Shown piece after piece: positions 11,127 to 62,692 of a stretch of DNA of 64,000 nt. The stretch is from Planctomycetota bacterium. Lineage in GTDB: Bacteria > Planctomycetota > MHYJ01 > JACPRB01. A program made the position numbers and the translations under genes. The DNA lies in the NCBI GenBank assembly GCA_016190175.1, contig JACPRC010000202.1, positions 11,750-75,749 on the forward strand, given 5' to 3'. Every line of letters begins with the position of its first letter. Position 1 is the first letter of the stretch. The notes beneath the pieces were generated by a model. It saw only the letters and a list, made by a program, of their open reading frames with translations, searched no databases and was not told where the DNA came from.

Positions 11127-11230
11127 GTTGCGTCCTCGACCCGCGCATCCCGCCCTTCCTATTATAGCACGGGCCGCCGCGGCCGCATGGCTCCCGCCCC
11201 GTGGTTTCGGTCTCCCCCTCCCCCGTCCGC

Positions 11231-11263
11231 ACCAAAAGTTGACTGTCAACTTTTGGTGTGCTC
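11231..11263. promoter_or_regulatory. Near-perfect 33-bp AT-rich palindrome (candidate operator) in the divergent kinase / oxidoreductase intergenic region
   Basis: gcaccaaaagttgac-t-gtcaacttttggtgtgc. Flanked by CT-rich tracts (ctccccctctcc x2) and a TACAAT -10-like hexamer about 20 bp upstream of the korA-like ATG. Confidence 0.5.
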
Positions 11264-11320
11264 CCCCTCTCCTTGTCTCCCCCTCTCCCTTTCGGCTACA
11301 ATTCCCCCGTGCCCCTCTTC

Positions 11321-18871: not shown

Positions 18872-18898
18872 CGCCCCGGAAGATGGCGCCATGGAGCG

Positions 18899-19150
18899 GG
18901 AACGCCCCGTTCACACTCGGGAACGTCCCGTTCCCGCTCGGGAATGTCCCGGTCGCACCCGGGAAGCCGGCGCATCGATCCGGGAGCCCCGCGTTCCGAG
19001 TCGGGAACGCGCCGTCCACACTCGGGAACGTCCCGTTCCCGGTCGGGAAGCCGCCGCATCGATCCGGGGACGCCGCGTTCCGAGTCGGGAACGCCCCGTT
19101 CGCACTCGGGCATCCCTTTCGCGGATCGGGCTGCGGCCCTGCCGAAAGAA
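18899..19150. repeat. Tandem array of about 12 copies of a 21-bp unit (GGGAACGNCCCGTTCNCNCTC), with a higher-order about 105-bp periodicity
   Basis: Units begin every 21 nt: gggaacgccccgttcacactc, gggaacgtcccgttcccgctc, gggaatgtcccggtcgcaccc, gggaagccggcgcatcgatcc, gggagccccgcgttccgagtc, then the set repeats. Many units contain the mini-palindrome GAACG-NCC-CGTTC. Open in all three forward frames (heptad GNxPFxL in one). Confidence 0.8.
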
Positions 19151-19185
19151 CAAAGAGCAAAGGTAACCGTTCACGGGTCGCCATC

Positions 19186-19270
19186 AGCCCTCAGAGGTCA
19201 GCTTTCAGCCGGGCCGGCGCGACTCCCATCTTGCCGAAGACTGATTGCGGACGGCTGAACGAGCAAAGAA
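19186..19270. repeat. REP-like element (copy B of the GCTGAT/CAGCC family), flanked by purine-rich GAACAAAGA direct repeats
   Basis: ccatcagccctcagaggtcagctttcagcc...gactgattgcggacggctgaacgagc. Flanks are gaaagaacaaagagcaaagg (19135) and gagcaaagaacgaagaagaaagc (19262). Confidence 0.45.
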
Positions 19271-19309
19271 CGAAGAAGAAAGCGGGCTATCGGCGAGCGG
19301 CGCATCCCC

Positions 19310-20281
19310 TCACCGCTGCACCATCCCCGTCGGGTTGATCGTGATCTCCTTCTCCTCCGCCGGGGACTTGATCTTGATCCGCAGCTGGTTCGAGTGCTTC
19401 CGCGGGTCCAGCCGCCCCTCGCCGTCGAAGTGGATCACGAATTCCGTCTGCTTCGGCGCGAGGTATCCCTGGGGCAGGTCGAACTTCGCCTCGCTCGGCA
19501 GCAGGTACCGCTCGCGCGCGAAGATGAGGCTCACGCGGAACTCGTCGAGGATCCCCTGGCAGCCGCCCTTCGACGCGCCGAGCACGAGCGCCTGCCCCTT
19601 CGTCCACTTCATCGTGACCGCTCCCGTCGCCAGGAGCGCGTCGTTGACGACGAGCTGCGCCTCGCGGCCGTTGAAGACGAGGTGGATCCGGTACCAGCGG
19701 TCCGAGCCGCGGAAGGTCACGCTCCCCGACGAGAGCGTGGCCGTGCCGATCCGCGCGACGAGCTGGCCGTTCGCCTCGATCGACATCTCGAGCTGCGGCC
19801 CGATCGCGCACAGCATCTGCCGCCGCGGCGCGTCGACACGATAGAACCAGAACTCGATCGCGACGCCCTGGTCCTCGGCGTACACCGGAAACTCCCCGCA
19901 GTCCACGGTCGTCGAGCCCGTCATCTGGAGCGCCGAGCCGACGCGGCCCGGCACGAGCACGCCGTTCGTGACGCGGCCGTTCTTCCCGAACGCCCCCGTC
20001 GTGACCGTGTCCTCGAAGTGCCACTCCCCCGCGGTCTCCTTGGTCATCGCGTAGACGGCGTTGCCGGCGACGTCGAGGACGACCCATGCGGGGCTGCGCG
20101 TGGCGCGCGCCTCGTCGCGCGCGGCGCGCAGCACGGCGACGAGATGTCCCGCGGCCGCGCGCACGCCGAGGTCGCGGTTCGCGTTGCGGTACAGGGCGAC
20201 GGAAAGCCCGAGGAGCAGGGAGATGATCACGATGACGACGACGACCTCGATGAGGGTGACGCCGGCCCGGTGGTTGGTCAT
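19310..20281 (-). CDS. Prepilin-type N-terminal cleavage/methylation domain protein (pseudopilin/type IV pilin-like)
   Basis: Start MTNHRAG|VTLIEVVVVIVIISLLLG: a short leader ending in G followed by the TLIE hydrophobic helix. The ORF-track extension upstream begins at a TTG inside the hairpin repeat. Confidence 0.65.
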   Translation of the reverse strand: MTNHRAGVTLIEVVVVIVIISLLLGLSVALYRNANRDLGVRAAAGHLVAVLRAARDEARATRSPAWVVLDVAGNAVYAMTKETAGEWHFEDTVTTGAFGKNGRVTNGVLVPGRVGSALQMTGSTTVDCGEFPVYAEDQGVAIEFWFYRVDAPRRQMLCAIGPQLEMSIEANGQLVARIGTATLSSGSVTFRGSDRWYRIHLVFNGREAQLVVNDALLATGAVTMKWTKGQALVLGASKGGCQGILDEFRVSLIFARERYLLPSEAKFDLPQGYLAPKQTEFVIHFDGEGRLDPRKHSNQLRIKIKSPAEEKEITINPTGMVQR

Positions 20282-20349
20282 TGGTGGTTGGTGGTTGGTG
20301 AAGAGGGCACGCACCCCGCACCAACCACTAACCACCAACCACCAACCAC
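20271..20349. repeat. Hairpin element E1 built from tandem heptamers (GGTTGGT)n / (ACCAACC)n
   Basis: ggtggttggtcattggtggttggtggttggtg-aagagggcacgcaccccg-caccaaccactaaccaccaaccaccaaccac. Lies between the pseudopilin-2 stop and the pseudopilin-1 start codon, and the ATG is inside one arm. Confidence 0.6.
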
Positions 20350-21056
20350 TAGAATTGCCGGAGATCGTCCTCGGTTCCGAGGATCCCGTCCGGTCCCGGG
20401 GAAACGAGCTGGTACTTGTCGGGCATCGCCCACGAGCTTCCCGCCCCCTTGAGCGGCTTGAAGGACTGCTCCTGGCCGCCCGCCGCGCCGAGGTAGGTCG
20501 TCAGGGGCGCGGGAGCCCGGGCGTAGTCGTTGTGGTGGAGATAGACCAGCGGGTTCCCGAAGAAGTCCGTGTACTCCAGGAGCGCGTACGCCCCCGACTC
20601 CGCGAGATAGGACTCCGTCGGGTTCTTGGGGAGATCGTCGCCGTCCGCGTTCGCGTACATCTCCTGCGTAGGCGGCTGGTACAGGATGCCGCCCTTCTGC
20701 TTGCTCGAGAGACTCGCGACGAGGGACTCGACTCCGTTGTTCGTGTTGTTCGGGACCTTCACCTTGTAGTCGGCGAGGGTGGACGGCGGGTAGTCGCGCC
20801 AGCGCGTGTGGTAGTTGTCGAGCGCGCCCTGCATCGTGGAGAGCATCGCCTGCGTGTTCGAGATCTTCGAGGTCTTGATCGCGTAGGTGACGCCCACCAG
20901 GGCGAGCGAGGCGAGGATGCCGATGATGACGATGACGACGAGGATCTCGAGCAGGGTGAAGCCGGCCCGGGGATACGGGGAGATGGGGGGATGAGGGGAT
21001 GGGGGGAGCGTCCGCCACTCCCCCCATCTCCCCATCTCCCGATCTCCCGATCTCAT
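20349..21056 (-). CDS. Prepilin-type N-terminal cleavage/methylation domain protein (GspG/PulG-like pseudopilin)
   Basis: ...PRAG|FTLLEILVVIVIIGILASLALVG: a canonical GspG-type N-terminus. Start is M1 (21056, overlapping the upstream stop) or M8 (21035). The leader coding region is made of GGGGATG-type heptamers. Confidence 0.65.
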   Translation of the reverse strand: MRSGDREMGRWGEWRTLPPSPHPPISPYPRAGFTLLEILVVIVIIGILASLALVGVTYAIKTSKISNTQAMLSTMQGALDNYHTRWRDYPPSTLADYKVKVPNNTNNGVESLVASLSSKQKGGILYQPPTQEMYANADGDDLPKNPTESYLAESGAYALLEYTDFFGNPLVYLHHNDYARAPAPLTTYLGAAGGQEQSFKPLKGAGSSWAMPDKYQLVSPGPDGILGTEDDLRQF

Positions 21057-21058
21057 TT
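20986..21058. repeat. Hairpin element E4 built from (GGGGATG/GGGAGAT)n heptamers and their complement
   Basis: ggggagatgggggatgaggggatgggggga-gcgtccgcc-actccccccatctccccatctcccgatctcccgatctc. Spans the junction between the TPR gene and pseudopilin-2, and contains both candidate start codons. Confidence 0.5.
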
Positions 21059-24013
21059 TCGCCTCTCGTATATCCTAACATCGTCGAGGGCCAGGGTGAA
21101 CCGGATCCTCCGCTCGCCGCGCGCCCAGAACGAGACCTTGAGCCCGCCCTTCCCCTGAAGGTTCGTGAAGGGCCACGGCATCTCGGCCACCTTCGCGTAG
21201 TCGCGCTTCGCGGGATCGTAGATCTGCACCTCGATCTGGGACGCATGCTCCTTCCTCCGGCGCTCGAGGCGCAGCCGGATCTCCTGCGGCGCGCGGTACT
21301 GCTGGTTCGCCGTCTGCCACTCCCCCTCCGTGATCTCGTGGCGGTCCTTCAGGAAGCGGTCGCTGGTCCAGGTGGAGACGCGCAGCCGCCGCGCCCGGTC
21401 GAACGCGAAGTGGAGCCCGGGCCGGGGGGCGTTCTCCTGGACGCGGGGCCCGTAGAGGGAGACCCCGAACTCGAACGAGACGGAGGGCTGCGCCTCCGGA
21501 TAGAACGTCGCCTCGAGCCTGGAGAACTTATCGATCGCCAGATTGTCCCGCTCCAGAAGGGAGGGCACCCAGTCGTCGCCCGGTTCCCCCGCGAACAGGC
21601 AGCGCTGGCCGGAGAGGACGATGGGAACGCGCGGCCGCTCGTCGACCTCGATCCACTGGTTCCGCCCGCGGCCCTGGATGCGGTCCGAATCCTCGCGGCT
21701 GAACGTCTCGTCCACGGCGTAGGAGGTGGCCGTCCACTCGTCGATCTTCTTCACCGTCTCCGCCGCCTCCTGGACGAACCGCAGGGAGACCGGATCCTCG
21801 TAGTCCTTGTCCTTGACCTCCGAAGCCGCCTTGAAGTACGACCGCGCCGCGGCCAGCCGCCCCGCGGCGTCTTCGCTCCCGAACAAGTAGTGCAGATAGC
21901 CGTAGGCGTACTCGACGATCGGGTCCGCCCGGAGGCTGGCGTCGCGCACGAGCTGCTTCGCGTGGTCGAGCCTCTTGCGCGCCGGCTCGGGCCGCCGCAG
22001 CAGCAGATCGGCGCAGGCGAGCGCGAGCTGGACGTTGATCCGGTTCTGGTCCTCGATCCGCCCGAACAGCGTGGATGCCCGGACCAGATCGGCCCGGGCC
22101 GACGCGCGCCAGGCGTCGGGGACGAGACGGATCTGGTCGCGCGCCGCCTCGCCCCACAGACGGCCCAGCGCGGGGAGCGACCGGTCCGCCGCCTCGCAGA
22201 GCGCCGCGAGGCGCGCGGCCTCCGCCGTCTGCGACTCCGCCAGCCGCAGGCACGACACGGCCACGCCCGAGCAGGCCGGCAGGAAGAGGGGCTCGCGGCG
22301 CAGCGCCTCGCGCGAACCCGCCAGCGCCGCGTCCAGGTTGCCGGACCGCAGCATCAGTTCGCCCCTGAGGTAGTTCGCGTACGCGTGGCCGGGATCGGCC
22401 GTGAGCGCCGCGTCGAGCCGCTTCGCGGCGTCCTCGCCGTTGCCCCCGAGCAGGAACGCGAGCGCCTGACAGGCGGGGACGTCGGCGTCGGCCGGGTCGC
22501 GCTCCGCGGCCTTCGCCAGCAGCGCGGCCGCCTCGGCCGGCTTGCCCGCGAGGAGGTACAGGTGCGCGAGGTTCGTCCACGCCTCGCCGGCGTACTGGTC
22601 CTGGAGGAGCGCCGCCGCGAACGCCGACGACGCGTCCTTCCAGCGGCCCTCGAACGCGTGGCAGCAGCCGAGCGCGTTCCACGCCTCGGCCGACTTCGCC
22701 TTGGACGCGGCATCCAGGTCGGGGAGCGCCTCCGCGAAGCGGCCGAGCGACAGGTGCGCGCGTCCCCGCGCCGTCAGCGCCGCCGTCCGCAGCTCCGGCG
22801 TGAAGTTCTTCTGGTCGTTCGAGTACTTCCCGAACATGTCCGTGACGATCTCCACCGTGCGGGCGGGGTCGCCCAGCTCCACGGACATCCTTGCCTGGCC
22901 GACCTTGCCGCGGAACGAGAGGGGCGAGAGCACGCTCTTCCCGTAGGCGTCGAGCGCCGACTCGAAGCAGCCCAGCTTCCGCAGGCCTTCGGCGACGCGC
23001 AGCCACAGCTCCTCGCGCATCGCGGGCGCCGCCTGAACGCACAGCTCGTAGTGCGCGAGCGCGGCGTCGAAGTCGCCCTGCTCCTCCAGGATCTCGCCGA
23101 GGAGCAGGATCGCGCGCGCATGGTCGCGCTTGAGTTCGAGCGCGCTCCGCAGATCCTGCGTCGCGGACTCGATCATCCCGCGCTGCCGGCACTCGTCCGG
23201 GGTCCCGTGGCAGAGGCGGTTCGCCTCCGCGTCGGCCTTCGGCTGGAGGGGCTCCGGTTCGTGGCACCACCTCGCGAGCTCCACGCGCCGGTCCGCCTCC
23301 TGCGGCGCGCCCGCGAGCTTCTTCCGGCGGTACGCGAGCTGCTCCGAGTTCTTCCAGCTATGCTGGATCTCCTTGATGGCGCTCTTCTTCCAGGTGTGAC
23401 TGCCCGCGCCGCCCTTCAGGCCCAGCACGAGGACGTCGGGCGCCTCCTCCTGGCGCGCGCAGCCGGCGACGCACTTCCCCTCGTCCGGCTGCTGCGCGCT
23501 GTTGAAGATCACGACGCAGAACTCGCGCTCCCGGTCGTCGCTCTGGTCCTTGAAGGGCGTGAGCGCAGGTTCCTCGATCTTCTTGAGCGCCTCCAACTGG
23601 TCGGCCGCCGGCAGGTCGGCCTCCGCGACCACGGCTCGCGTGCCCGGCGCGGGGTACTTCGCCTTCGCCTTCTCGTTGTAGATCCGCAGGGGCGGAGCAG
23701 GCCGGAAGAGCGGGACGACGGGGTTCTCGATCCGCGGCATGGGCGCGGCGATGGCCGGGACCGGCAGTTGCGTCGTGCTCTCCGTCAGGAAGACGTTGCG
23801 TCCGCCCCAGTACTTCTCGAAGTCCGCGTCCACCGGCCGGAACTGGAGCCCGGGCCAGGGGCGGTGCTCGCGGGCGCGGGACGCCGGGAAGGCGTCGTCT
23901 CCCGGGCCGCCGGGGCCGCCCGCCACGCCCGCGAGGAGCAGGACGGCCGCGACCGCGGCGCATGCGGCGAACGCGATCTGCTCGCGCGTGAGCGACTTGA
24001 GCCAGTCCTTCAT
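21053..24013 (-). CDS. Large TPR-repeat protein with N-terminal membrane anchor
   Basis: MKDWLKSLTREQIAFAACAAVAAVLLLAG transmembrane segment, then more than 20 TPR-like repeats over 986 aa. Confidence 0.7.
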   Translation of the reverse strand: MKDWLKSLTREQIAFAACAAVAAVLLLAGVAGGPGGPGDDAFPASRAREHRPWPGLQFRPVDADFEKYWGGRNVFLTESTTQLPVPAIAAPMPRIENPVVPLFRPAPPLRIYNEKAKAKYPAPGTRAVVAEADLPAADQLEALKKIEEPALTPFKDQSDDREREFCVVIFNSAQQPDEGKCVAGCARQEEAPDVLVLGLKGGAGSHTWKKSAIKEIQHSWKNSEQLAYRRKKLAGAPQEADRRVELARWCHEPEPLQPKADAEANRLCHGTPDECRQRGMIESATQDLRSALELKRDHARAILLLGEILEEQGDFDAALAHYELCVQAAPAMREELWLRVAEGLRKLGCFESALDAYGKSVLSPLSFRGKVGQARMSVELGDPARTVEIVTDMFGKYSNDQKNFTPELRTAALTARGRAHLSLGRFAEALPDLDAASKAKSAEAWNALGCCHAFEGRWKDASSAFAAALLQDQYAGEAWTNLAHLYLLAGKPAEAAALLAKAAERDPADADVPACQALAFLLGGNGEDAAKRLDAALTADPGHAYANYLRGELMLRSGNLDAALAGSREALRREPLFLPACSGVAVSCLRLAESQTAEAARLAALCEAADRSLPALGRLWGEAARDQIRLVPDAWRASARADLVRASTLFGRIEDQNRINVQLALACADLLLRRPEPARKRLDHAKQLVRDASLRADPIVEYAYGYLHYLFGSEDAAGRLAAARSYFKAASEVKDKDYEDPVSLRFVQEAAETVKKIDEWTATSYAVDETFSREDSDRIQGRGRNQWIEVDERPRVPIVLSGQRCLFAGEPGDDWVPSLLERDNLAIDKFSRLEATFYPEAQPSVSFEFGVSLYGPRVQENAPRPGLHFAFDRARRLRVSTWTSDRFLKDRHEITEGEWQTANQQYRAPQEIRLRLERRRKEHASQIEVQIYDPAKRDYAKVAEMPWPFTNLQGKGGLKVSFWARGERRIRFTLALDDVRIYERRK

Positions 24014-24032
24014 TCGACCACCAGGCTTGGTG

Positions 24033-24112
24033 GTTGGTGGTTGGTCGTTCGTGGTTGGTGAAGAGACTCTTCACCAACCACCAACCACGAACCACGAACC
24101 ACTCTCCTCATT
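24033..24112. repeat. Hairpin element E2, (GGTTGGT)n arms around a palindromic AAGAGACTCTT loop
   Basis: ggtggttggtggttggtcgttcgtggttggtg-aagagactctt-caccaaccaccaaccacgaaccacgaaccac. Fills the intergenic gap between the PilO-like stop and the TPR gene start. Confidence 0.6.
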
Positions 24113-24902
24113 CGACCGCCTTCCCCCCCTCGATGGGCTTCTCGGGATCCAGGACGAGCCCGCAGACGACGAAGTCCGCGTCGTAGTTCTCCTGTCCGCC
24201 CGTCGCCGCGCCGCCGATGGCTGCGGCGTCCACGCACAGGTACGGACTCTGCTGGAACGCGTGGGCAACCCGGAAGACGCCCTCCAGGCTCCCCGACACG
24301 CGGATGCGAACCGCCACCTTGCGGAGGAACCGCTCCCCTCCCGTCTCTTTCGGACCCTCGATCGAGATGTCGATATCGGCGAAGCGGTCCCCCGGTTTCA
24401 TCACGGCGATCGCGGAGCGCACGGCCGCATCGGCCACGGCCAGCCGGAGGAGGGCCTCCTCCGCCGCGACCTCGTCCCCCTGGATCCGCGAGATCACGCT
24501 CGCGAAGCCGAAGTCCTCCCGGAACTCCCCCAGCCCCGCCGAACCGTTCAGCGTCTTCAGCTCGTCCCGGACGTTGAGATACACGTCTTTGAAATGGTCC
24601 TCGTGCTTCCCCTTCCCCCGGAACCGGTCCGGCAGGGCGAAGCGGTGCGTCTTCACGGCGTCGCCGAGTTTCTGGCGCAGGTTCTTGAGCTCCGTGTCCG
24701 CCTGGGAGATCGCCGCGTCGCTCGGCACGCCGCCCGAGGACTGCGACCGGTAGTTCCGCTCCTTCGCCTCGCGCGTCTTCGCCTCCTTCGCGGCCCCCGC
24801 GCTGATCGGCCGATAGATCAGGACGAGATGGAGGATCACGCAGAGCGCGATCGCGCCCACGGCGATCAGGAACTTCCGGTTCTCCTTCAGCCAATACTCC
24901 AT
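24108..24902 (-). CDS. Membrane-anchored hypothetical protein, possibly a PilO-like pilus assembly component
   Basis: MEYWLKENRKFLIAVGAIALCVILHLVLIY transmembrane segment, then a coiled-coil/periplasmic domain. The PilO call rests only on its position after the PilM/N gene and its size/topology. Confidence 0.4.
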   Translation of the reverse strand: MEYWLKENRKFLIAVGAIALCVILHLVLIYRPISAGAAKEAKTREAKERNYRSQSSGGVPSDAAISQADTELKNLRQKLGDAVKTHRFALPDRFRGKGKHEDHFKDVYLNVRDELKTLNGSAGLGEFREDFGFASVISRIQGDEVAAEEALLRLAVADAAVRSAIAVMKPGDRFADIDISIEGPKETGGERFLRKVAVRIRVSGSLEGVFRVAHAFQQSPYLCVDAAAIGGAATGGQENYDADFVVCGLVLDPEKPIEGGKAVE

Positions 24903-24958
24903 GTTCTACGTTCTACGTTCTACGTTCTACGTTCCACGTTCCATGTTCTACGTTTCAC
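24903..24958. repeat. Tandem heptamer array (GTTCYAY x 8), the left arm of a long-range inverted repeat around the four-helix-bundle gene
   Basis: gttctacgttctacgttctacgttctacgttccacgttccatgttctacgtttcacg, immediately 5' of the PilO-like start codon on the minus strand. Confidence 0.75.
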
Positions 24959-25355
24959 GCTTTGATCGCGACGATCCACGATTGCGCGGATCCGGAGCAG
25001 ACGCGAGGTACCGAAGGAACCCTCCGATCAGCTCCTTGACCTTCCTGGCGTGCGAATAGAGCGAGTCGAACGACTCGCCGGAGATGTAATCCTGGTCCAT
25101 ACACAGGTACAGATGCGACTGGAGCTCGGAGGCGGACCTTCTGGCGAGCCGGAGGAAGCGAGCGAATTCGCGGTTGGAGCCCCCGTCGAAACCCTCCGCG
25201 ATGTTGGCCATGGCCGATACGGCGGCCCGACGCATCTGTCTGCGCAAGTCGGGGTCCGCGCGGAACGCGTCCGTACGGGTCGCTTCGTACACCGTCTTGG
25301 CCAGACTCCGTGCCTCCGTCCATGCCTCGATCTCCTCGAACTTCGTGATCGTCAT
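24948..25355 (-). CDS. Four-helix-bundle protein (TIGR02436 / 23S rRNA intervening-sequence protein family)
   Basis: MTITKFEEIEAWTEARSLAKTVYEATRTDAFRADPDLRRQMRRAAVSAMANIAEGFDGGSNREFARFLRLARRSASELQSHLYL: a canonical family signature (M15 of the ORF). Confidence 0.75.
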   Translation of the reverse strand: MTITKFEEIEAWTEARSLAKTVYEATRTDAFRADPDLRRQMRRAAVSAMANIAEGFDGGSNREFARFLRLARRSASELQSHLYLCMDQDYISGESFDSLYSHARKVKELIGGFLRYLASAPDPRNRGSSRSKRET

Positions 25356-25373
25356 GATCGCACGCCTCCCGTG

Positions 25374-25417
25374 ATCAGAACAGGGAACGTGGAACATGGA
25401 ACGTGGAACATGGAACG
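25374..25417. repeat. Tandem heptamer array (GAACRYG x 6), the right arm and reverse complement of the 24903-24958 array
   Basis: gaacagggaacgtggaacatggaacgtggaacatggaacgtc, between the PilM/N stop and the four-helix-bundle start. Confidence 0.75.
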
Positions 25418-25421
25418 TCCT

Positions 25422-27254
25422 TCATTCGTATCGCGCCTGGCAGATCACCGCGATCTCGAAGCGCCGCCATCCCGGACGGTCGGCGTCCGTCAGTCCGGAC
25501 GTCCGCGCGAGCTGCCCTCTCTGCTCCTTCGTCAGCCGCCGCTTGATCTCGTCGAGGATCCGGTTCGCCTTCCCCGGCGATTCGGCGCTCACCTCCCCCA
25601 CCACCAGGACGACGCGCGCGTCGCCCTCCCATTCGAGCAGGTCGGCGCAGTCCCCTTTCGGGAAGATGCGCGGTTCCGCCTGCGGGGGAAAGTCCATGCG
25701 GACCCGGAACGCATCTTCCGTGCGGTCCTCGATCTCGCCGATCACCAGCCCGGCCTCCGCGTGGCGGAAGAGGCAGCGCCGCCCGCCCTTCCCCTCGCGC
25801 GTGCGGTCCCCGGAGGGATCGACGATCTTCAGCTCGCGCAGCATGATCCCCTCCTCCTTGAGCGCGAACTGCCGCACCTCCGAATGGACGTCCAGAAGCG
25901 CGCGGGAGGCGAGGGTGGCCGTCGCGATCCGGTCGAGCCTGGCCGCGACCTCGCGCTGGTCCGCCTCGATCCGGTCGAGCTTCGCGATCCGATCGAGGTT
26001 CGCGGAGGACTGCTTTTCGAACCCCTCCCGGCGCGACGTCTGGGACGCGCGGCGCACGGCGGCGAAGCCGGTGATGACGAGGAGCGCGACGAGGAGGGCG
26101 GCCGCTCCCGCGGCGACGTAGGACCACGCCCGGAAGAAGTCGCGCCTCTTCTTGACCGCGTCCGGCAGGATCGAGAGCATGGCCTTGTCCGCCGGCAGGA
26201 GGGAGAGCTGCGCGAGACCCAGCGGCACGGCGAACTCCGTGGGAAGCGAGCGGAAGTCCTCCCCGCCCGCGGCCTCCACGCCCGAGGCGTCGACGCCGGC
26301 GATGAACGGGTCGAAGAGCTCGACGGGCACCTTGAGCGGGCTCTGCTGAAGGGAGCTCTGGAGATACTCGGGCAGCCCGCGCAACCGCGCGCCGCCGCCC
26401 GAAAGCAGGATGCGATCGACGGACAGCTCGCGGTCGCCGAGCTCCACGCGCGCGTGGTTGACGCAGGACTGGATGAAGCCGGAGAGCTGGCCCGCGGCCG
26501 TGCGGATCGCGGGCCGGATCTCCTCCTCCTTCGGATCCGCGTTGTCGGACGCGGGCAGGATGCTGCCGTAGCGGATCTTCAGCCACTCGGCCTCGTCGGG
26601 CCCCACGCCCGCGGCGGCCGCGATGTTCTGGTCGAAGATGCGGGCCCCCGTGGAGACGTTGCGCGCGTAGATGAGCTTCCCGCCCCGGACCAAGGCGACG
26701 TCCATGTTGTCCGCGCCCAGGTCCAGGACCATGTGCGTCCCGCCCGCATCGCCGTAGGCGGTCCGGAAGGCGGCGCACAGCGCGAAGGCGTTCGGCACGG
26801 CGTCCCGGACGTCCACCCCCGCCCGCCGCGCCACCTCGAGCCGCTCGTCCACGTAGGGCTTCTTGCCCACGCCCACCATGGCGAGATACTGTTTGAAGTA
26901 CGCGTCGGGCTCCCGCAGGGTGCAGAAGTCCGCATAAAGCTGCTCGTCCCCTTCGCGGCGCTGGTCCAATTCGTAGCCCATCATCGCCCGGTAGTTCGCC
27001 GGCTTCATGGCGGGCTGCTGCACGACCTGGAGGTTGATGTCGCGGCCGGAGAGTCCGACCACGCCGACGCGCCGGCCGCCCCCGTCGCCCAGCGCCTCGT
27101 GGAGGATCTTCATCAGCAGAGGCTTGCGCTCCTCGGGCTTGCCGACCCTCGGAATGCGGCGGCGGGCGACGCCGGTGACGACGAATCCACGGAGGCCGCG
27201 CTGGAGCGCGACCACCTTCACCGCGCTGTTGCCCAGATCGATCCCGAGTCCCAT
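25422..27254 (-). CDS. Type IV pilus assembly PilM-like actin-fold ATPase fused to a PilN-like transmembrane coiled-coil segment
   Basis: MGLGIDLGNSAVKVVAL (PilM N-terminal motif). Actin-like fold through about 350 aa, then a transmembrane helix (WSYVAAGAAALLVALLVITGF) and coiled coil. Confidence 0.6.
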   Translation of the reverse strand: MGLGIDLGNSAVKVVALQRGLRGFVVTGVARRRIPRVGKPEERKPLLMKILHEALGDGGGRRVGVVGLSGRDINLQVVQQPAMKPANYRAMMGYELDQRREGDEQLYADFCTLREPDAYFKQYLAMVGVGKKPYVDERLEVARRAGVDVRDAVPNAFALCAAFRTAYGDAGGTHMVLDLGADNMDVALVRGGKLIYARNVSTGARIFDQNIAAAAGVGPDEAEWLKIRYGSILPASDNADPKEEEIRPAIRTAAGQLSGFIQSCVNHARVELGDRELSVDRILLSGGGARLRGLPEYLQSSLQQSPLKVPVELFDPFIAGVDASGVEAAGGEDFRSLPTEFAVPLGLAQLSLLPADKAMLSILPDAVKKRRDFFRAWSYVAAGAAALLVALLVITGFAAVRRASQTSRREGFEKQSSANLDRIAKLDRIEADQREVAARLDRIATATLASRALLDVHSEVRQFALKEEGIMLRELKIVDPSGDRTREGKGGRRCLFRHAEAGLVIGEIEDRTEDAFRVRMDFPPQAEPRIFPKGDCADLLEWEGDARVVLVVGEVSAESPGKANRILDEIKRRLTKEQRGQLARTSGLTDADRPGWRRFEIAVICQARYE

Positions 27255-27257
27255 GTC

Positions 27258-29390
27258 CTATCCACCCGAACGGATCTGATCCAGCATCCTCCGCGCCTCC
27301 TCGCCCGTCTCCGTCGAGCCGTACGAAGCGACGATCCCGGCGAGGATCGCCTCCGCCAGCGCCTTCCGGCCCGCCTCCAGGCACTGCCGCGCCCGGTCCA
27401 GCAGTTTGCGCGGCCGGTCCGACCCACCGGGCACGGCCGTCACGTCCGCAATACGCTTGCGGAGCGTGCGGGCCTTCGAAAGGTACGGCTCCCCGGACCA
27501 GAGCCGCTCGTACCGGTCCACCTCGACACCCGCGGCCTCCAGTTCCGCCTGGAGGGCGACCAGTTCGGCGGCCAGGCCCCTCGACTCGGCGATGCGCCAG
27601 TCCTCCGACTCCCGCTGCTCCAGTTCCGAGATGAGGGCCGCGATCTCGCGCGCGGCCGACTCGTCGAGCGTCGAGTCGCCCTGCGCGGCCCGCAGAACCT
27701 GCAGCGCCCGGAACGGCTGGTCTTTCGTCAGATCCCGCGCCTCGGCCCTGGGGTCCTTCCTCGACGCGCGATCCGCCAGGCCGCGGAGGCGGAAGGCCGC
27801 CAGCACTTTCCCCTCGGTATCGGTGACGGCGAACGGCTGCACGAGACGGTTCCCTTCCCGCACCGCCGGCCGCAGGCGCCGGTCGACGTAGACGATCCGA
27901 TAGTCTTCGCCCGCCGTGAACTCCAATTGCGCAACCGGTTCCTCCGGCAAGCGCAGACGGTCCGCCCGCGGGACGACCGCCCAGAGATCGACCCGACCCA
28001 CTTGCGCCAGGTCGGACGCCTTGAATTCGTAGGCGATCCCGAGATCGTCCTTCGCGCTCCAGAAGATCGACATCTCGTACGGGACCGCGGCGCCGCTCAC
28101 CGGATGGGCCGCGGCACCCTGGACGACGATGCGTCCCTCCTCCCTCCGGACGGACGCGGGCGACAGGAGCTGGGAGGTCGCGCCCTCGAGATCGTTCTCG
28201 AGACGGAAGTGGAGGTCGGACATGACCGCGTGAGCCCCCCGGAGGATCGTGACCGCGCCGCCCCGGGCGACGAGGATGCGGAACGGCCCCGCCTCCATCT
28301 CCTCGCGCGCCTTCCCCGCGGGCTTCCCGACGATGCGCACGTCGTCGAAGTAGATGAGACCCGCGCGTCCCGCCGTCGCGAGCGCGAGTCTCAGTTCCCT
28401 CACGCCGGGCGGCACGTCGAACGTGTCGCGGATCGCGATCCAGTCGGCCCCCTTGGAGACCGGCGCGGAGAACTCCTCGAAGAGGACCGCCCCGTCGCGG
28501 AGCCACGCGACCTTCACCGCGGCGGAGCCGGCGAAGTCGCCCCACTTGGCCCATGCCGACACTTCGAAGGACTTGTGCGACCCGACGGCGATCCTCTCGG
28601 AGTACTCTACTTCCGACTGCGTCTCCGCGGGCGCGGGCCCCTTCCGCAGTTCCAGGGCCCTCTTCCCCGTGCGCGCCGCCGCCTCCGTGACGGACACGGA
28701 AGAGGAGCCCGGAGGATGAAGGGCCCAGTTCGTCGGCTTTCCGGGCGCGGCCCACTCGAAGCCTCCTTCGTCGCGCAGGAGGTTCTCTTTGTCTTCTCCG
28801 CCCCTGGTGCCGCGGCCGGGCAGAACGAGCGCGAGGACGGTCAGGCCGACGAGAGCGACGGCGACGGAGACGGCGATCAGCAGGCGCCGCAGGTTCAGGC
28901 CCGACGAGGTCCAGGCCCCGATGTCCTTCACGAGAGCGGCCGCCGTCCTGCGTGCCTCCGTCTTTTTCGGGGCGGGGGGGACCGCCGGTTGCGCGGAGCC
29001 CGACGCGGGTTTCGACCCCGAGGCTGGGGCTTCCGCCGGAGGGGCCGTCATTCGCTCCGTCTTGACTTTCGTGTCGCCGGCCGACTTCCTCGCGGCGCCG
29101 CTGTCCCGCTTCACCTCGAACCAGATGTAGGTCTGGCCGATGTGGATGCGGTCGCCCGGTTCGAGCCTGCGCTCCCAGACGCGCCCGCCGTTGAGGAGCG
29201 TACCGTTCATGCTGCCCCTGTCCACGAGCGTCACGACGCCGTTCGCCAGCACGACCTCGCAATGCTCGCGGGAGATGTTGGCGTCGCCGACGGGGACCTG
29301 GCACTTGGAGGAACGGCCGATGACGTTGGGACCTTCGCGGAGCTCGACAGTCCACTCCCGGTCCAGGTGCTGGATGATCAGCTTCGGCAT
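27258..29390 (-). CDS. FHA-domain membrane protein
   Basis: N-terminal FHA: VIGRSSKCQVPVGDANISREHCEV...DRGSMNGTLLNG...GDRIHIG. Central transmembrane helix (LLIAVSVAVALVGLTVLALVL) and a large extracytoplasmic domain. Stop is 1 nt from the PilM/N start. Confidence 0.7.
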   Translation of the reverse strand: MPKLIIQHLDREWTVELREGPNVIGRSSKCQVPVGDANISREHCEVVLANGVVTLVDRGSMNGTLLNGGRVWERRLEPGDRIHIGQTYIWFEVKRDSGAARKSAGDTKVKTERMTAPPAEAPASGSKPASGSAQPAVPPAPKKTEARRTAAALVKDIGAWTSSGLNLRRLLIAVSVAVALVGLTVLALVLPGRGTRGGEDKENLLRDEGGFEWAAPGKPTNWALHPPGSSSVSVTEAAARTGKRALELRKGPAPAETQSEVEYSERIAVGSHKSFEVSAWAKWGDFAGSAAVKVAWLRDGAVLFEEFSAPVSKGADWIAIRDTFDVPPGVRELRLALATAGRAGLIYFDDVRIVGKPAGKAREEMEAGPFRILVARGGAVTILRGAHAVMSDLHFRLENDLEGATSQLLSPASVRREEGRIVVQGAAAHPVSGAAVPYEMSIFWSAKDDLGIAYEFKASDLAQVGRVDLWAVVPRADRLRLPEEPVAQLEFTAGEDYRIVYVDRRLRPAVREGNRLVQPFAVTDTEGKVLAAFRLRGLADRASRKDPRAEARDLTKDQPFRALQVLRAAQGDSTLDESAAREIAALISELEQRESEDWRIAESRGLAAELVALQAELEAAGVEVDRYERLWSGEPYLSKARTLRKRIADVTAVPGGSDRPRKLLDRARQCLEAGRKALAEAILAGIVASYGSTETGEEARRMLDQIRSGG

Positions 29391-29477
29391 GAAAGGGCCG
29401 GAATCCCCTTGTGGTCCGCCGTCCGCTCCAACGGTCTCTGTACCTTATTCGCGCAAGGGCGGGGGGTCAAGGAAAAG

Positions 29478-29560
29478 CCTCGCGGCCGCCAATCAGCCTC
29501 TAGCCTTTGGCCATTAGCCGGAGGCCACTCGCGTCCAGCTAACGGCTGACAGCTAAGGGC
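29478..29560. repeat. REP-like element (copy C of the GCTGAT/CAGCC family)
   Basis: aatcagcctctagcctttggccattagccggagg...cagctaacggctgacagctaagggctaatcc. Confidence 0.45.
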
Positions 29561-29605
29561 TAATCCTTCCGGCTCGGAGCCTCCGCGGCCAGGCGACGAA
29601 ACCGC

Positions 29606-29633
29606 TTGACATAATCCATACGTCTACTAGAAT
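29606..29633 (+). promoter_or_regulatory. Sigma-70-like promoter candidate upstream of rny (about 300-nt leader)
   Basis: TTGACA-16 nt-TAGAAT (cgcTTGACAtaatccatacgtctacTAGAATcc). Confidence 0.35.
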
Positions 29634-29927
29634 CCGGTCAGACGTACCCGGTCCCCTTCCGCATGAGGTCCCTGTACGGCGGAAGGTTTAAGATAGATTG
29701 CGGTGGCGCGAACCCGGCCAGCGGTTGAGCAGACAGATCCGACCCCACTGGGGATGTGGAGATGGTGGGAGATACACGGACGTTCCGCGTTTCCCGTGGG
29801 GGTTTGATTTCGGGCGATCACGGCGGACGTTTCGGGGACTGAACCGCTCCGCCTCCTCGCCGTCCCGGACCGGGTGCACTTCCCGCGATCGTGGACCGGC
29901 ACTCTTCCAGCATGGGGGTGCTGAGCC

Positions 29928-31466
<1,539 letters not shown>

Positions 31467-37305: not shown

Positions 37306-38729
37306 CCACCGGAAAGAACAAAGAACAGAGAACAAAGAAGAGAGAGGGCGGGGGAAGGATCCCCCGCACCCCCTCTGCCGCCCGGGCCTTGCGAAGAGGA
37401 GGGGGCTCGGGGGAGACTTCCCGCGGCCCTTTGTTCTTCGTTCTCTGTTCTGTGTTCTTTCCGCTCTCGGCATGCGAAACCGCGGCGCCTCCCCCCCGGC
37501 GCCGCGACGCGGAACCTCCCGATCGTCCGCCCGTACGCGAAACGCGCCGCCCGCCCGCGCCCACGCAGGAGAAGACGTTCGAGGACGTCGAGCGCGAGCT
37601 CGGCCTCGCTTCGGGCACCCTCAAGGCGGACCTCGAGGCCGAGTACCAGGCGGAGACGGGCGACCTCCTGGCCGTCACCTGCCTCAGCCACAAGAGCCTC
37701 ACGCAGGAGGCCGCCGTCTCGCCGGACGGGAAGCTCGTCCTGACGGGGATCGGGAGCGTCGTCGTGCGCGGGCTGACGCTGGCGCAGGCGGAGACGGCGA
37801 TCACGGAGGCGGCCGCCGCCGCGGGCGTGCGCAAGCCGCGCTTCGCGGTCTCCGTGAAGACCCTCGGAAAGAAGTACGTCACGCTCGTCGGGCCGCAGAT
37901 GACCGGAGGCCGGCTGGAGATCCACGGCCGCGGCACGATTCTCGAGACGCTCGCCGGCGCGGGCTGGAAGCCGGACCGCCGCTCCGTCCGCCGCCTCGCC
38001 CTCGTGCGCCGCGAACGCACGAGCGTGCTCGACCTCGAGCAGATCGCCGGCACCGCCCGCGTCTCGCTCAACCTCAAGCTCCGCGCCAACGACATCCTCA
38101 TCGTCGTGGAAAAGGACCCCGTGGACGTCAAGGGGAGCGTCCAGTTCCCCGGCACCTACGCCGTGCCGCCCACCGGCGTGCTCGAGGTCCGCGACGCGAT
38201 CGCGCTCGCCGGCGGGCTGAAGTACCCGGTGGACGTGCGGACCGTGCGCGTCCTCCACGCGGACGGCCGCTCGGCCACCTTCGACCTCAACGACTACCTG
38301 TTCCGCCCGGGCGCCGCGCCGTCCTGCGTCCTCCGTCCGGGAGACACCGTCTTTTTCCCGCAGCAGCGCGAGTTCAGCGTCTTCGTGCTCGGGATGGTGA
38401 AGAAGCCCGGTCAGGTCAAGGTGCCGGGCCCGATCACCGTGAGCCGCGCTCTCGCCATGGCGGACCACGAGCGCTTCGGCGCGGTGCTCTCGCACTGCAG
38501 CCTGGTCCGCGGCTATCCCGATAAACCCGAGGTGATCGGGATCGACTTCAACGCCCTCTTCCGGGGCGACACGCGGTTCGACCTCGTGATGAACGACGGC
38601 GACGTGCTCTACGTGCCGGAGAGCGCGCTTTCGAACGTGCTGGACCTGGTGGAGCGGATCCTCCGGCCGTTCGCCGGAGCGACCCCGACGGCGGTGCAGA
38701 TCTACACGGCGACGCAGATTGGAAAGTGA
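37302..38729 (+). CDS. Polysaccharide export lipoprotein (Wza-like, SLBB-domain family)
   Basis: ATGA overlap with the upstream gene. Long basic n-region then LFFVLCSVFFPLSAC (lipobox). Polysaccharide-export and SLBB-like segments (GDLLAVTC..., ...VRPGDTVFFPQ, ...GDVLYVPES). Confidence 0.6.
   Translation: MTTGKNKEQRTKKREGGGRIPRTPSAARALRRGGGSGETSRGPLFFVLCSVFFPLSACETAAPPPRRRDAEPPDRPPVRETRRPPAPTQEKTFEDVERELGLASGTLKADLEAEYQAETGDLLAVTCLSHKSLTQEAAVSPDGKLVLTGIGSVVVRGLTLAQAETAITEAAAAAGVRKPRFAVSVKTLGKKYVTLVGPQMTGGRLEIHGRGTILETLAGAGWKPDRRSVRRLALVRRERTSVLDLEQIAGTARVSLNLKLRANDILIVVEKDPVDVKGSVQFPGTYAVPPTGVLEVRDAIALAGGLKYPVDVRTVRVLHADGRSATFDLNDYLFRPGAAPSCVLRPGDTVFFPQQREFSVFVLGMVKKPGQVKVPGPITVSRALAMADHERFGAVLSHCSLVRGYPDKPEVIGIDFNALFRGDTRFDLVMNDGDVLYVPESALSNVLDLVERILRPFAGATPTAVQIYTATQIGK
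37312..37465. repeat. About 36-nt inverted repeat (GAAAGAACAAAGAACAGAGAACAAAGAAG ... complement) around a GC-rich core, inside the Wza-like signal-peptide coding region
   Basis: Left arm ggaaagaacaaagaacagagaacaaagaagagagaggg encodes KNKEQRTKKRE. Right arm ccctttgttcttcgttctctgttctgtgttctttcc encodes LFFVLCSVFF. About 32/36 complementary. The same GAACAAAGA motif flanks REP copy B at 19.1-19.3 kb. Confidence 0.5.
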
Positions 38730-38812
38730 TTGGTGGTTTGTGGTTGGTGGTTTGTGAAGAGACAGTATCCTCTTTCTTCACTGACCACTAACCACCAACT
38801 ACGAACCACCAG
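38728..38812. repeat. Hairpin element E3, (GGTTKGT)n arms, between the Wza-like and Wzc-like genes
   Basis: gattggtggtttgtggttggtggtttgtg-aagagacagtatcctctttcttcac-tgaccactaaccaccaactacgaaccacc. Confidence 0.6.
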
Positions 38813-42383: not shown

Positions 42384-42860
42384 TCACGCCTCGGGAGCGG
42401 CGGGGCACCGCTCCTCGAGCCGGCGGAGACGCTCGCCATGAAGGTCGAGGTTCCTGCCAATCTTCTCGGAAGTGCTCGCCAGGTGATCGAGCGTCTCCGT
42501 GACGCGGCTGATGTCGTCCTTGGTTGCCATCGTCTCGCGCATCCGTGCCGTCTCCTGCTGGAGATCCACGATCGCCCGCGCGTGGGGCTTCAGGGCCTCC
42601 AGGAGGTTCGCCTTGGTGGGGTAGTTTGCGAGCGCGGCCTGGAGGTCCTCCTTGGTGGGGTAGTTTGCGAGCGCGGCCTTGAGATCCTCCCTTAGATCCT
42701 TTCTCAGATCCTTTCTCAGATCCTTCCTGAGATTCTTCCTCAGATCCTTGCTGAAGTCCCCCAGGAGTTCCTTGATCTCCTTCCGGAGACCCTCCCGGAG
42801 TTCCGCCATCTCGCTTCCGAGTTCGGCGCGGGTGACAGGGCGGCCGTTGTTCTTCTCCAC
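42384..42860 (-). CDS. Coiled-coil hypothetical protein with internal 12-bp and 42-bp tandem repeats
   Basis: DLRKNLRKDLRKDLRKDLREDL from agatccttTCtc x about 6. LQAALANYPTKEDLQAALANYPTKANL from an exact 42-bp duplication (ggcctggaggtcctccttggtggggtagtttgcgagcgcggcc). Confidence 0.4.
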   Translation of the reverse strand: MEKNNGRPVTRAELGSEMAELREGLRKEIKELLGDFSKDLRKNLRKDLRKDLRKDLREDLKAALANYPTKEDLQAALANYPTKANLLEALKPHARAIVDLQQETARMRETMATKDDISRVTETLDHLASTSEKIGRNLDLHGERLRRLEERCPAAPEA

Positions 42861-58537: not shown

Positions 58538-58640
58538 CCTGCCCCCTCTTCCCCTCCCCCCCTCTCCCTATCCCCCTCGATTCCCCTTGAAGCCCCCCGC
58601 CTTCGCCGCTACTCTGTCGCACCTCTTCAGAAAGGACCCG

Positions 58641-62638: not shown

Positions 62639-62647
62639 GGCCGCGAC

Positions 62648-62692
62648 GTTACGTTTCGTAACATGCCGCGTTACCATTCGTAACATGCCCGA
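62648..62692. promoter_or_regulatory. Two adjacent palindromic sites (GTTACG-ttt-CGTAAC and GTTAC-cattc-GTAAC), a candidate operator
   Basis: cgacGTTACGtttCGTAACatgccgcGTTACcattcGTAACatgcc. This is a direct repeat of a 19-bp unit, each unit internally palindromic, in a lower-GC intergenic region. Confidence 0.4.

Follow-up and report, generated by a model that had tools for sequence, protein, structure and literature searches.

Introduction

The locus described here raises the question of why a gene of the four-helix-bundle (4HB) family found in intervening sequences (IVSs) of 23S ribosomal RNA should be found inside a pilus operon, between two protein-coding genes and enclosed by inverted arrays of tandem heptanucleotides. 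The locus (24903-25419) belongs to a 64,000-nucleotide stretch of a Planctomycetota bacterium genome, contig JACPRC010000202.1, which was analysed as a whole and is called the window below (G+C 69%). The role of the rRNA IVSs and of the conserved S23p open reading frame (ORF) inside them has been an open problem since the early 1990s, and the large 4HB family has, to our knowledge, no assigned role except that of Avd in diversity-generating retroelements (DGRs). An earlier note on this DNA, made from the letters alone, proposed either a mobile hairpin cassette or programmed processing of the pilus mRNA. The analysis favours, at a probability of roughly 0.6, a hairpin gene cassette that insulates itself and corresponds in kind to the ORF-bearing 23S IVSs, lodged in a protein-coding operon, with a cargo gene that serves the cassette. 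Judged by sequence comparison, the cassette idea is strongly supported, and the family-wide link of this gene family to inverted heptamer arrays and operon junctions appears to be undescribed in the literature that was searched.

Anatomy of the cassette and its predicted fold

The cargo gene (24948-25355, minus strand) encodes an intact 135-aa protein of the four-helix-bundle S23p / 23S-rRNA-IVS family, which matches PF05635 over profile positions 1-105 of 106 (E 1e-29, 103.3 bits, cut-off 33.8) and TIGR02436 with an E of 4e-28 (97.7 bits, cut-off 24). In the sense of the mRNA, the gene is preceded by a 5' arm of six tandem heptamers (25378-25419, minus strand) and followed by a 3' arm of eight (24903-24958, minus strand), GAAC-type on the coding strand. 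Read on the plus strand, the left array, which is the 3' arm, consists of GTTCTAC x4, GTTCCAC, GTTCCAT, GTTCTAC and GTTTCAC (GTTCYAC-type; 7.4 copies with 91% matches in Tandem Repeats Finder, TRF). The right array reads GAACAGG, GAACGTG, GAACATG, GAACGTG, GAACATG and GAACGTC (TRF period 14, 96% matches), and on the coding strand ACGTTCC/ATGTTCC..CTGTTCT, i.e. GTTC-type. Direct reading, TRF and the profile matches together confirm the earlier description of a TIGR02436-type gene between eight and six inverted heptamers. Four GTTC at a spacing of 7, with one mismatch allowed, occur 10 times in the window compared with 0.01 in shuffles; eight of these occurrences lie in the two cassette arrays and two in a gene-less hairpin at 37313-37458.

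The cassette fills the junction between two host genes on the minus strand. The upstream gene (25422-27254) encodes a PilM/N-like fusion of 610 aa that matches PF11104 PilM_2 (E 1e-17), TIGR01175 pilM (E 7e-20) and the Amuc_1101 family PilM-like (E 9e-27). It ends, as read in the sequence, in TGA (TCA on the plus strand; 25422-25424). The downstream gene (24108-24902, 264 aa) was earlier taken for pilO; its match is weak (GspM, E 5e-5), and it is better called PilO/GspM-like, its position after pilMN being conserved in 11 syntenic loci. Both arrays had been said to abut host codons. The left array does touch the pilO-like start codon (24900-24902, CAT on the plus strand), the 3' arm running directly to this ATG, while the 5' arm starts 2 nt past the pilM/N stop. 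The left array adjoins the cargo gene without lying wholly outside it, since the final 11 bases of the ORF, within its last three codons and the TAG stop (24948-24950, minus strand), belong to the array as well. Between the 5' arm and the ORF, 9 nt 5' of the ATG, stands a Shine-Dalgarno sequence, GGGAGG (25365-25370, minus strand).

The exact cargo protein is also on record in an NCBI metagenome-assembled genome (Planctomycetes bacterium), and an independent raw-read assembly (Logan SRR12113390, L001) has the same gene with both arrays, its contig stopping inside the downstream array. The cassette is therefore not an assembly artefact. Rfam gave merely sub-threshold microRNA-like matches over 24000-25600, all to a GGTGGTT hairpin, so that no described RNA family fits this interval. 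The cargo protein had no match in PADLOC or PHROGs. No sigma-70 promoter or intrinsic terminator was found by a scan of 24000-27400, a scan that is uninformative for Planctomycetes.

Spurious ORFs are seen near the arrays in mechanical ORF lists (24901-25059 and 25396-26121 on the plus strand, 24948-25397 on the minus strand), examples being MFYVLRSTFYV... and a 149-aa form of the 4HB ORF with its start inside the array. Such false starts and extensions arise from ATG codons in some array frames, and mis-annotated starts beside arrays of this kind are likely from gene callers.

The two arrays form inverted repeats of 42-49 nt that are 82-86% complementary and separated by 399-436 nt. When the minus-strand RNA of 24890-25430 was folded, array-array pairing made the outermost stem in both the minimum free energy and the centroid structures (-238.9 kcal/mol, z = -4.96; 0/100 shuffles as good), in agreement with the earlier claim that the arrays can pair in RNA around the ORF. 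The predicted outer stem has 42-49 bp, with a non-complementary position in roughly every 7-nt unit. As in an IVS, an S23p ORF is thus enclosed by terminal inverted repeats with a predicted stem. In this fold the bases just 5' of the pilO ATG are sequestered, and no Shine-Dalgarno remains there.

Insertion into the pilus operon

A metagenome scan with PilM/N as query gave 13 loci, 12 of which span the relevant junction with FHA-pilMN-pilO-TPR synteny. These operons served for the empty-site comparison suggested in the earlier note: none of the 12 has a 4HB gene. The closest locus, L082 (64% aa identity in PilMN), reads GAGTGA-C-ATGGAT at the pilMN-pilO junction, i.e. a 1-nt spacer between TGA and ATG, and its pilO-TPR and TPR-pilin junctions are likewise tight and without hairpins. 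The pilMN-pilO spacer is about 7-21 nt in most other syntenic loci. Absence from the 12 operons indicates, by parsimony, that the ~520-bp cassette is an insertion in the window's lineage, into a spacer of about 1-21 nt. Comparison of the junction with the L082 empty site revealed no target-site duplication. The same absence argues against a conserved pilus-regulatory role for the cassette.

Three of the syntenic loci carry gene-less hairpins at exactly the pilMN-pilO junction. The repeated units are AGAATG x4 in L087 and GAATNNA x5 in L090, and the hairpin of L086 is a ACACAAAGACAC inverted repeat of uncertain tandem structure. Either array hairpins have colonised the junction on several occasions, or a single fast-diverging hairpin did so.

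Architecture across the protein family

An alignment of relatives, used to scan genomes, identified 80 loci from the nearest clade of the family, with proteins 46-63% identical, in at least 15 phyla, including NC10, Chloroflexota, Verrucomicrobiota, Planctomycetota, Nitrospirota, Acidobacteriota, Bacteroidota, Desulfobacterota and Gammaproteobacteria. Among the carriers are the cultured strains Desulfoluna limicola ASN36, Prosthecobacter fluviatilis KACC 12649 and Thiohalocapsa marina DSM 19078. The flanks of 77 loci were testable, using an inverted-repeat score of at least 30 between 250-nt flanks, with same-size windows of the same loci as controls. Inverted-repeat flanks were found in 57/77 relatives (74%) versus 11/1040 control windows (1%), and arrays stood on at least one side in 71/77 loci versus 18% of controls. 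The contrast is conservative, because the control windows were drawn from the same array-rich genomes. Array coverage was highest at 10-80 nt 5' of the start codon, where the median gap of 27 nt can accommodate a ribosome-binding site, and at 0-50 nt past the stop (median gap 5 nt), and the window cassette has the same layout. None of the 80 loci lies in an rRNA context, as judged by blastn with E. coli 23S and 16S. The contigs of close relatives are mostly ~1 kb, which is consistent with arrays breaking short-read assemblies, although the median contig of the collection is also ~1 kb.

The units of the arms vary between loci (GTTCTTG, GTCCAAN, GAGTTGC, TGGTCTGA and others), with the cores GAAC in 39, GGAC in 11, AACT in 6 and GACC in 2. 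The two arms of each locus are still complementary: 1398 of 1653 aligned columns are Watson-Crick, and 15.4% are non-complementary. A spacing of exactly 7 between mismatches accounts for 13.3% in the stems versus 5.6% under random placement, a 2.4-fold enrichment, and arrays selected for at least 4 units have a median length of 5 units. Within-array entropy was also examined for a contiguous conserved core of the unit and did not differ from the permuted control. Proteins within a repeat-core class are 56.6% identical compared with 52.4% between classes (permutation p ~0.0005, confounded by taxonomy), and this match of protein subfamily and repeat core lends weak support to co-inheritance of protein and repeats. 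The hairpins have a consistent chirality, with a G/T-rich, GTTC-type 5' arm and a GAAC-type 3' arm (downstream arm 59:5). Chirality is uninformative on the functional strand, since an inverted repeat reads identically on both strands. It is not required by pairing and may reflect common descent or sequence-specific recognition.

The habit of sitting at operon junctions recurs in the relatives, for which neighbours were assigned by crude ORF calling. In 44/65 loci, the neighbours on both sides run in the same direction as the 4HB gene. The median distance from the stop of the upstream gene to the outer edge of the upstream array is 9 nt, and a co-oriented downstream ORF of at least 150 codons, found in 39/50 loci, starts a median of 16 nt past the downstream array. 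In one locus (L099), the cassette splits the classic partners ABC2_membrane and ABC_tran; in another (L098), it stands between PSD/PSCyt and HXXSHH; and in L096 the order GNVR-[4HB]-Poly_export-[4HB]-Wzi places two cassettes in one operon. An annotation table for Flavobacterium columnare lists a 4HB gene 33-35 nt from gmk and, on the other side, nadD (PMC5524665).

Several loci depart from the simple plan. In L098 (1650-2190), the arms are ordered as 5' arm, proximal 3'-type arm, ORF and distal 3'-type arm, and the 5' arm can pair with either GAAC arm, giving a local hairpin or a long-range stem. In L096 (3690-4860, GCA_040961635.1), a 4HB cassette with GTTCGAG arms is nested within an outer GGACCAC/GTGGTCC hairpin. 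Long GAAC-type arrays flank the gene on both sides in several Verrucomicrobia and Pirellula loci. These three kinds of variant indicate that the arrays are dynamic, and they explain a part of the 26% of loci in which a simple inverted pair is lacking.

Gene-less hairpins and the contents of array pairs

Gene-less hairpins of inverted tandem repeats are common in this genome and were missing from the earlier note. Six of them, made of 7- or 8-mers, were found in the window by TRF and direct reading, giving seven array pairs per 64 kb. Three are built of GGTGGTT: one of inverted heptamers at 20269-20349, directly after the pilin-like gene (z -7.1); one of inverted GGTGGTT/AACCACC at 24025-24102, which fills the pilO-TPR spacer (-53.7 kcal/mol, z -5.7); and one at 38726-38809. 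The others are a TCAGCNN hairpin at 318-404, inverted 8-mers GGGGAGAT/ATCTCCCC at the TPR-pilin junction (20968-21054) and the AAAGAAC hairpin at 37313-37458, which has an 89-nt loop. All six fold strongly (z -3.4 to -9.9), and the five that were placed against ORF lists each lie between a stop codon and the next start. The arrays as such are therefore not peculiar to the cassette. The hairpin at 24025-24102 is 78% identical over 79 nt to that at 20264-20342, which marks the GGTGGTT hairpins as a dispersed family, and all three GGTGGTT hairpins share the loop-proximal motif GTGAAGAG.

The local operon runs on the minus strand from an FHA-domain gene (27258-29390) through the PilM/N-like and PilO-like genes to a TPR gene (21053-24013) and a pilin-like gene. 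Hairpins stand at four successive junctions of this operon, with a gene in the loop at pilMN-pilO alone.

Loop sizes of inverted array pairs were surveyed in 734 kb of sequence. In loops of 8-292 nt, a cargo gene was identified in none. Between 374 and 600 nt there are 32 pairs, 29 of them with a 4HB gene, 25 of these by construction of the locus set, being pairs around reference 4HB genes. The L096/L097 copies (two) enclose an annotated PF05635 gene, and additional 4HB relatives (E 9e-29 and 2e-14) are enclosed in L023 and L078. Two more pairs surround host-type genes, namely an RfaH/NusG-like ORF (L056) and a glycosyltransferase-like ORF (L060), and the remaining one, in L033, has no gene assigned. 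Loops above 680 nt run from the 3' arm of one junction element across host genes to the 5' arm of the next, their contents, assigned by eye, being for example a glycosyltransferase-like or an NAD-dependent epimerase-like ORF. In L098, L045, L057 and L059, cassette arms and gene-less hairpins share the unit GTTCTTG/CAAGAAC. Derivation of the gene-less hairpins from cassettes by deletion found no support: a six-frame search of 40-320-nt loops with the family profile gave a best E of 0.33.

Other repeats were seen along the way. The loops of three GAAY-armed hairpins (window 37346-37430, L087 2452-2500 and L090 5825-5895) have C5-7/G5-7 runs and an inner GC hairpin, e.g. ATCCCCC(T)GCG...GGGGG; they may represent a related element or resemble each other in composition alone. 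About ten tandem 21-nt units with an 84-nt super-period lie at 18897-19110, each with the palindrome GGGAACG-N3-CGTTCCC; the unit equals 3 x 7 nt and has a GAAC/GTTC core as in the cassette arms. A perfect 29-nt palindrome, CACCAAAAGTTGACTGTCAACTTTTGGTG, at 11230-11290 is followed by CT-rich 8-mer repeats CTCCCCCT, and a similar C/T-rich array is found at 58542-58587. A 39-nt tandem duplication at 42602-42749 is followed by a 12-nt x5.7 array, AGATCCTTCCTC, and a 22-nt unit containing the palindrome GTTACG..CGTAAC is present in two copies at 62647-62689.

The four-helix-bundle protein

An AlphaFold2 monomer model of the cargo protein (pLDDT 88.4) has four long helices. Foldseek matched it to 2gsc (Xcc0516; TMt 0.88-0.90, root-mean-square deviation (rmsd) 1.4-1.8 A, identity 29-32%) and to 2rld (BT_0352; TMt 0.78-0.88), entries with five chains each, and also to Avd (4dwl; TMt 0.87, rmsd 1.7 A, sequence identity 8-10%). 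The 22 invariant columns in an alignment of 32 relatives point to purifying selection on the protein.

Avd, a positively charged pentameric barrel with the same four-helix-bundle fold, offers the only mechanistic precedent. We know of no Avd gene with inverted heptamer arrays at its flanks. In the DGR ribonucleoprotein, all five Avd protomers touch one RNA stem-loop, whose flipped-out bases are inserted between protomers (bioRxiv 10.1101/2023.10.23.563531), and in Pfam it is PF05635 that matches the Avd-like DGR proteins (PMC10053308). The cassette differs from Avd loci in its 8-10% identity and in the absence of a reverse transcriptase and of template/variable repeats (TR/VR): the neighbouring ORFs are FHA, PilM/N, PilO-like, TPR and pilin genes, and no long diverged direct repeat was found in 19000-31000. 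A figure legend (PMC10910872 Fig. 6B) names '23S rRNA IVP' among domains for which a link to CRISPR adaptation modules is new. Taken with the pairing of Avd and a reverse transcriptase, this link suggests that the fold turns up repeatedly as a partner of machines that insert nucleic acids.

Proposed mechanism

The proposed cassette would comprise the 5' arm of six GTTC-type heptamers, the 4HB gene with its own Shine-Dalgarno and the 3' arm of eight GAAC-type heptamers, transcribed passively along with the pilus operon. Co-transcription is probable given the Shine-Dalgarno, the lack of a recognisable sigma-70-type promoter (a weak test in this phylum) and the co-orientation with hosts. In the RNA, the arms would pair into a 42-49 bp stem that loops out the cargo ORF, and the base of the stem would set the pilM/N UGA beside the pilO AUG, which are 1 nt apart in the empty site. 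Because stop and start would be brought together by the stem, the insertion would be structurally self-insulating and tolerated; termination-reinitiation coupling could be preserved, making the insertion nearly neutral. An equivalent stem in rRNA would hold the two 23S halves together. With more than 40 bp and isolated mismatches, the stem is a plausible substrate of RNase III, as in rRNA IVSs, and cleavage would cut the operon transcript in two and release the mRNA of the cargo gene.

The cargo protein would act for the cassette and not for the pilus, by binding its own repeat arms, either in the transcript or in DNA. By analogy with Avd, binding to its own arms is the most likely role, favoured by the Avd-like fold, the Avd stem-loop contact, the 7-nt mismatch period and the five-unit median of the arrays. 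If gene and arms are one unit, the IVS problem becomes general and open to study in ordinary operons and cultured carriers, and the repeat arms become a concrete candidate ligand for an orphan protein family.

A more sweeping proposal, put forward tentatively and well short of even odds, is that 4HB genes with inverted heptamer arms are a hitherto unrecognised, widespread class of selfish hairpin cassettes that colonise operon junctions in many bacterial phyla, with the ORF-bearing rRNA IVSs as a subset and a pentamer that reads the arms. About five units would then correspond to one pentamer, with one flipped-out base per unit, like Avd on its RNA stem. Binding would control how the cassette and the accompanying gene-less hairpins are processed, maintained or spread, much as REP-associated tyrosine transposases (RAYTs) relate to repetitive extragenic palindromic (REP) elements.

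Weighing the explanations

Several results weigh against a hairpin cassette served by its own protein. The window has six gene-less hairpins to the one cassette, mostly of different units (GGTGGTT, TCAGCNN, GGGGAGAT), so that the arrays may have an independent life of their own. The architecture was established in the nearest clade, which is not all of PF05635. Beside the 57 of 77 relatives with inverted flanks, about a quarter have no clear inverted pair, some with GAAC-type arrays on both sides. The mobile cassette of the earlier note is borne out in part: gene and arrays behave as one unit, the architecture recurring in 74% of the 77 relatives, and the unit was inserted. Mobility as such is conjectural: no transposase, integrase, nuclease or other catalytic domain is recognisable in the cargo, and neither a target-site duplication nor a close copy was seen, the best non-self match in 5.8 billion proteins being 65% identical. 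No relative of the cargo protein was found in a scan of viral contigs. Two cautions apply to a purely RNA-level view. In 46 stems, G-U mismatches do not exceed A-C mismatches (62 versus 57, p = 0.71), which means that selection on the sense RNA is not singled out over selection on DNA, and the chirality is marked.

The gene-less hairpins lend themselves to a simpler explanation, in which the arrays are generic self-spreading intergenic hairpins, resembling those of Geobacter or REP elements and bacterial interspersed mosaic elements (BIMEs), and the 4HB gene is a mere passenger that came to lie, or is tolerated, in such loops, without any tie between protein and repeats. All six hairpins of the window agree with it, as do the 78% identity of the GGTGGTT pair over 79 nt, expected for a dispersed family, the gene-less arrays at the same pilMN-pilO junction in L086, L087 and L090, the nesting of the inner L096 cassette in a GGACCAC hairpin and the paired inverted 7-9-mer arrays of Geobacter metallireducens, which have no link to this gene (PMC2700814). 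A passenger is nevertheless hard to reconcile with inverted flanks at 74% of genes versus 1% of controls, with fixed array distances from gene start and stop, and with 4HB as the sole recurrent gene in array pairs of 374-600 nt (29/32; 25 by construction). The common unit of cassette arms and gene-less hairpins in several genomes (GTTCTTG/CAAGAAC) also speaks for a tie. The passenger explanation is thus unlikely, although it is the strongest of the alternatives. Improbable as well is a role of the arms in DNA, as iteron-like sites or cruciforms for a nucleoid or replication/recombination protein, possibly 4HB itself, RNA pairing being incidental. It would accommodate the missing G-U excess (62 vs 57), the 125 transversion mismatches in the stems, which are above expectation from simple RNA-stem decay, the consistent chirality (59:5 for the downstream arm), which pairing does not require, and the IHF/HU binding proposed for similar Geobacter sites (PMC2700814). 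It fits poorly with arms wedged tightly between stops and starts of co-transcribed genes, the rRNA IVS precedent works on RNA, the only studied relative, Avd, binds RNA, and common descent can explain the chirality.

Still less credible is a host-selected regulator of the pilus operon, acting by programmed processing or attenuation that uncouples pilM/N from pilO-TPR, or by a heptamer-slippage switch that tunes pilO. The stem does hide the bases 5' of the pilO ATG and leaves no Shine-Dalgarno there, heptamer copy number differs among Coxiella strains (PMC4990558), and alternative pairings are possible for the L098 5' arm. Against this stand the 0/12 orthologous operons with the cassette, the same cassette between unrelated gene pairs in other phyla, and the hairpins at four successive junctions with none in the L082 ortholog, a pattern that looks like colonisation and not design. 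An orphan Avd left by a decayed DGR is close to refuted. The match to the Avd fold (4dwl, TMt 0.87, rmsd 1.7 A) and the coverage of DGR Avd-like proteins by PF05635 (PMC10053308) would be expected of it. However, the large ORFs within ~4 kb are all pilus-operon genes with no reverse transcriptase among them, no TR/VR-like direct repeat is seen in 19000-31000, identity to Avd is 8-10% compared with 29-32% to Xcc0516, and the array-bracketed architecture is conserved in itself. The IVS-like hairpin cassette remains the preferred reading.

Comparison with known systems

The earlier note linked the cassette to 23S rRNA IVSs, and this link is well matched by Coxiella burnetii, whose tandem heptamers lie in an RNase III-cut terminal stem. 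In the Coxiella 23S IVS, an S23p ORF is enclosed in a 28-bp terminal stem (Warrier et al., PMC4990558). Three tandem GACAGAT heptamers and a degenerate fourth are located just upstream of the ORF, in the 5' arm; their copy number varies by strain, and RNase III cleaves the stem in vitro at the first repeat (PMC4990558). The stem length would correspond to four heptamers per arm (4 x 7 = 28), a reading of ours that is not stated in PMC4990558. A 1993 proposal, as cited in that paper, held that IVSs are mobile and that their ORF serves mobility. The cassette shares with the ORF-bearing 23S IVSs of Leptospira, Coxiella burnetii and Brucella the PF05635/TIGR02436 family, the ORF inside a long inverted-repeat stem, and the co-orientation with host transcription and probable dependence on it, and with the Coxiella IVS also a 5' arm of tandem heptamers. 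In contrast to the Coxiella IVS, which is in helix 45 of 23S rRNA, the cassette lies between the protein-coding pilM/N-like and pilO-like genes and not in a 23S rRNA helix. Coxiella S23p is seemingly decaying and unexpressed, whereas the cassette protein is intact, strongly conserved and preceded by a good Shine-Dalgarno. The cassette thus misses one defining feature of a 23S IVS, its rRNA location, and shares the others, with excision by RNase III proposed by analogy.

REP/BIME elements with their RAYTs are similar in that many short palindromic elements occur just past stop codons in operons, a minority class being a gene between inverted copies of the elements. They differ from the cassette, whose arms are tandem 7-9-mer arrays and not a single palindrome, and whose protein shows neither an HUH/Y1 motif nor any other catalytic one.

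No general bracketing of this gene family by inverted heptamer arrays outside rRNA was found in the full-text literature, a search in which most subscription journals and family descriptions were beyond reach. The nearest parallels are intergenic heptanucleotide repeats, namely the short tandemly repeated repetitive (STRR) sequences of cyanobacteria, the TAACTGA repeats of Beggiatoaceae and those of Geobacter metallireducens, which likewise are tandem 7-9-mers in spacers, also within operons. Tandem 7-nt intergenic units in many copies, as in STRR sequences, are present in the window. In Geobacter metallireducens, inverted pairs of hepta- or octanucleotide sites occur at variable distance, e.g. 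between proB and proA, and the authors proposed IHF/HU binding for them (PMC2700814). The TAACTGA repeats are mostly direct and not inverted. Reports on such repeats regard them as regulatory or protein-binding, and a four-helix-bundle gene is linked to them in none (PMC4679880, PMC2700814). If the association described here is true, the heptamer arrays of cyanobacteria, Beggiatoaceae, Geobacter and others would gain a candidate partner protein.

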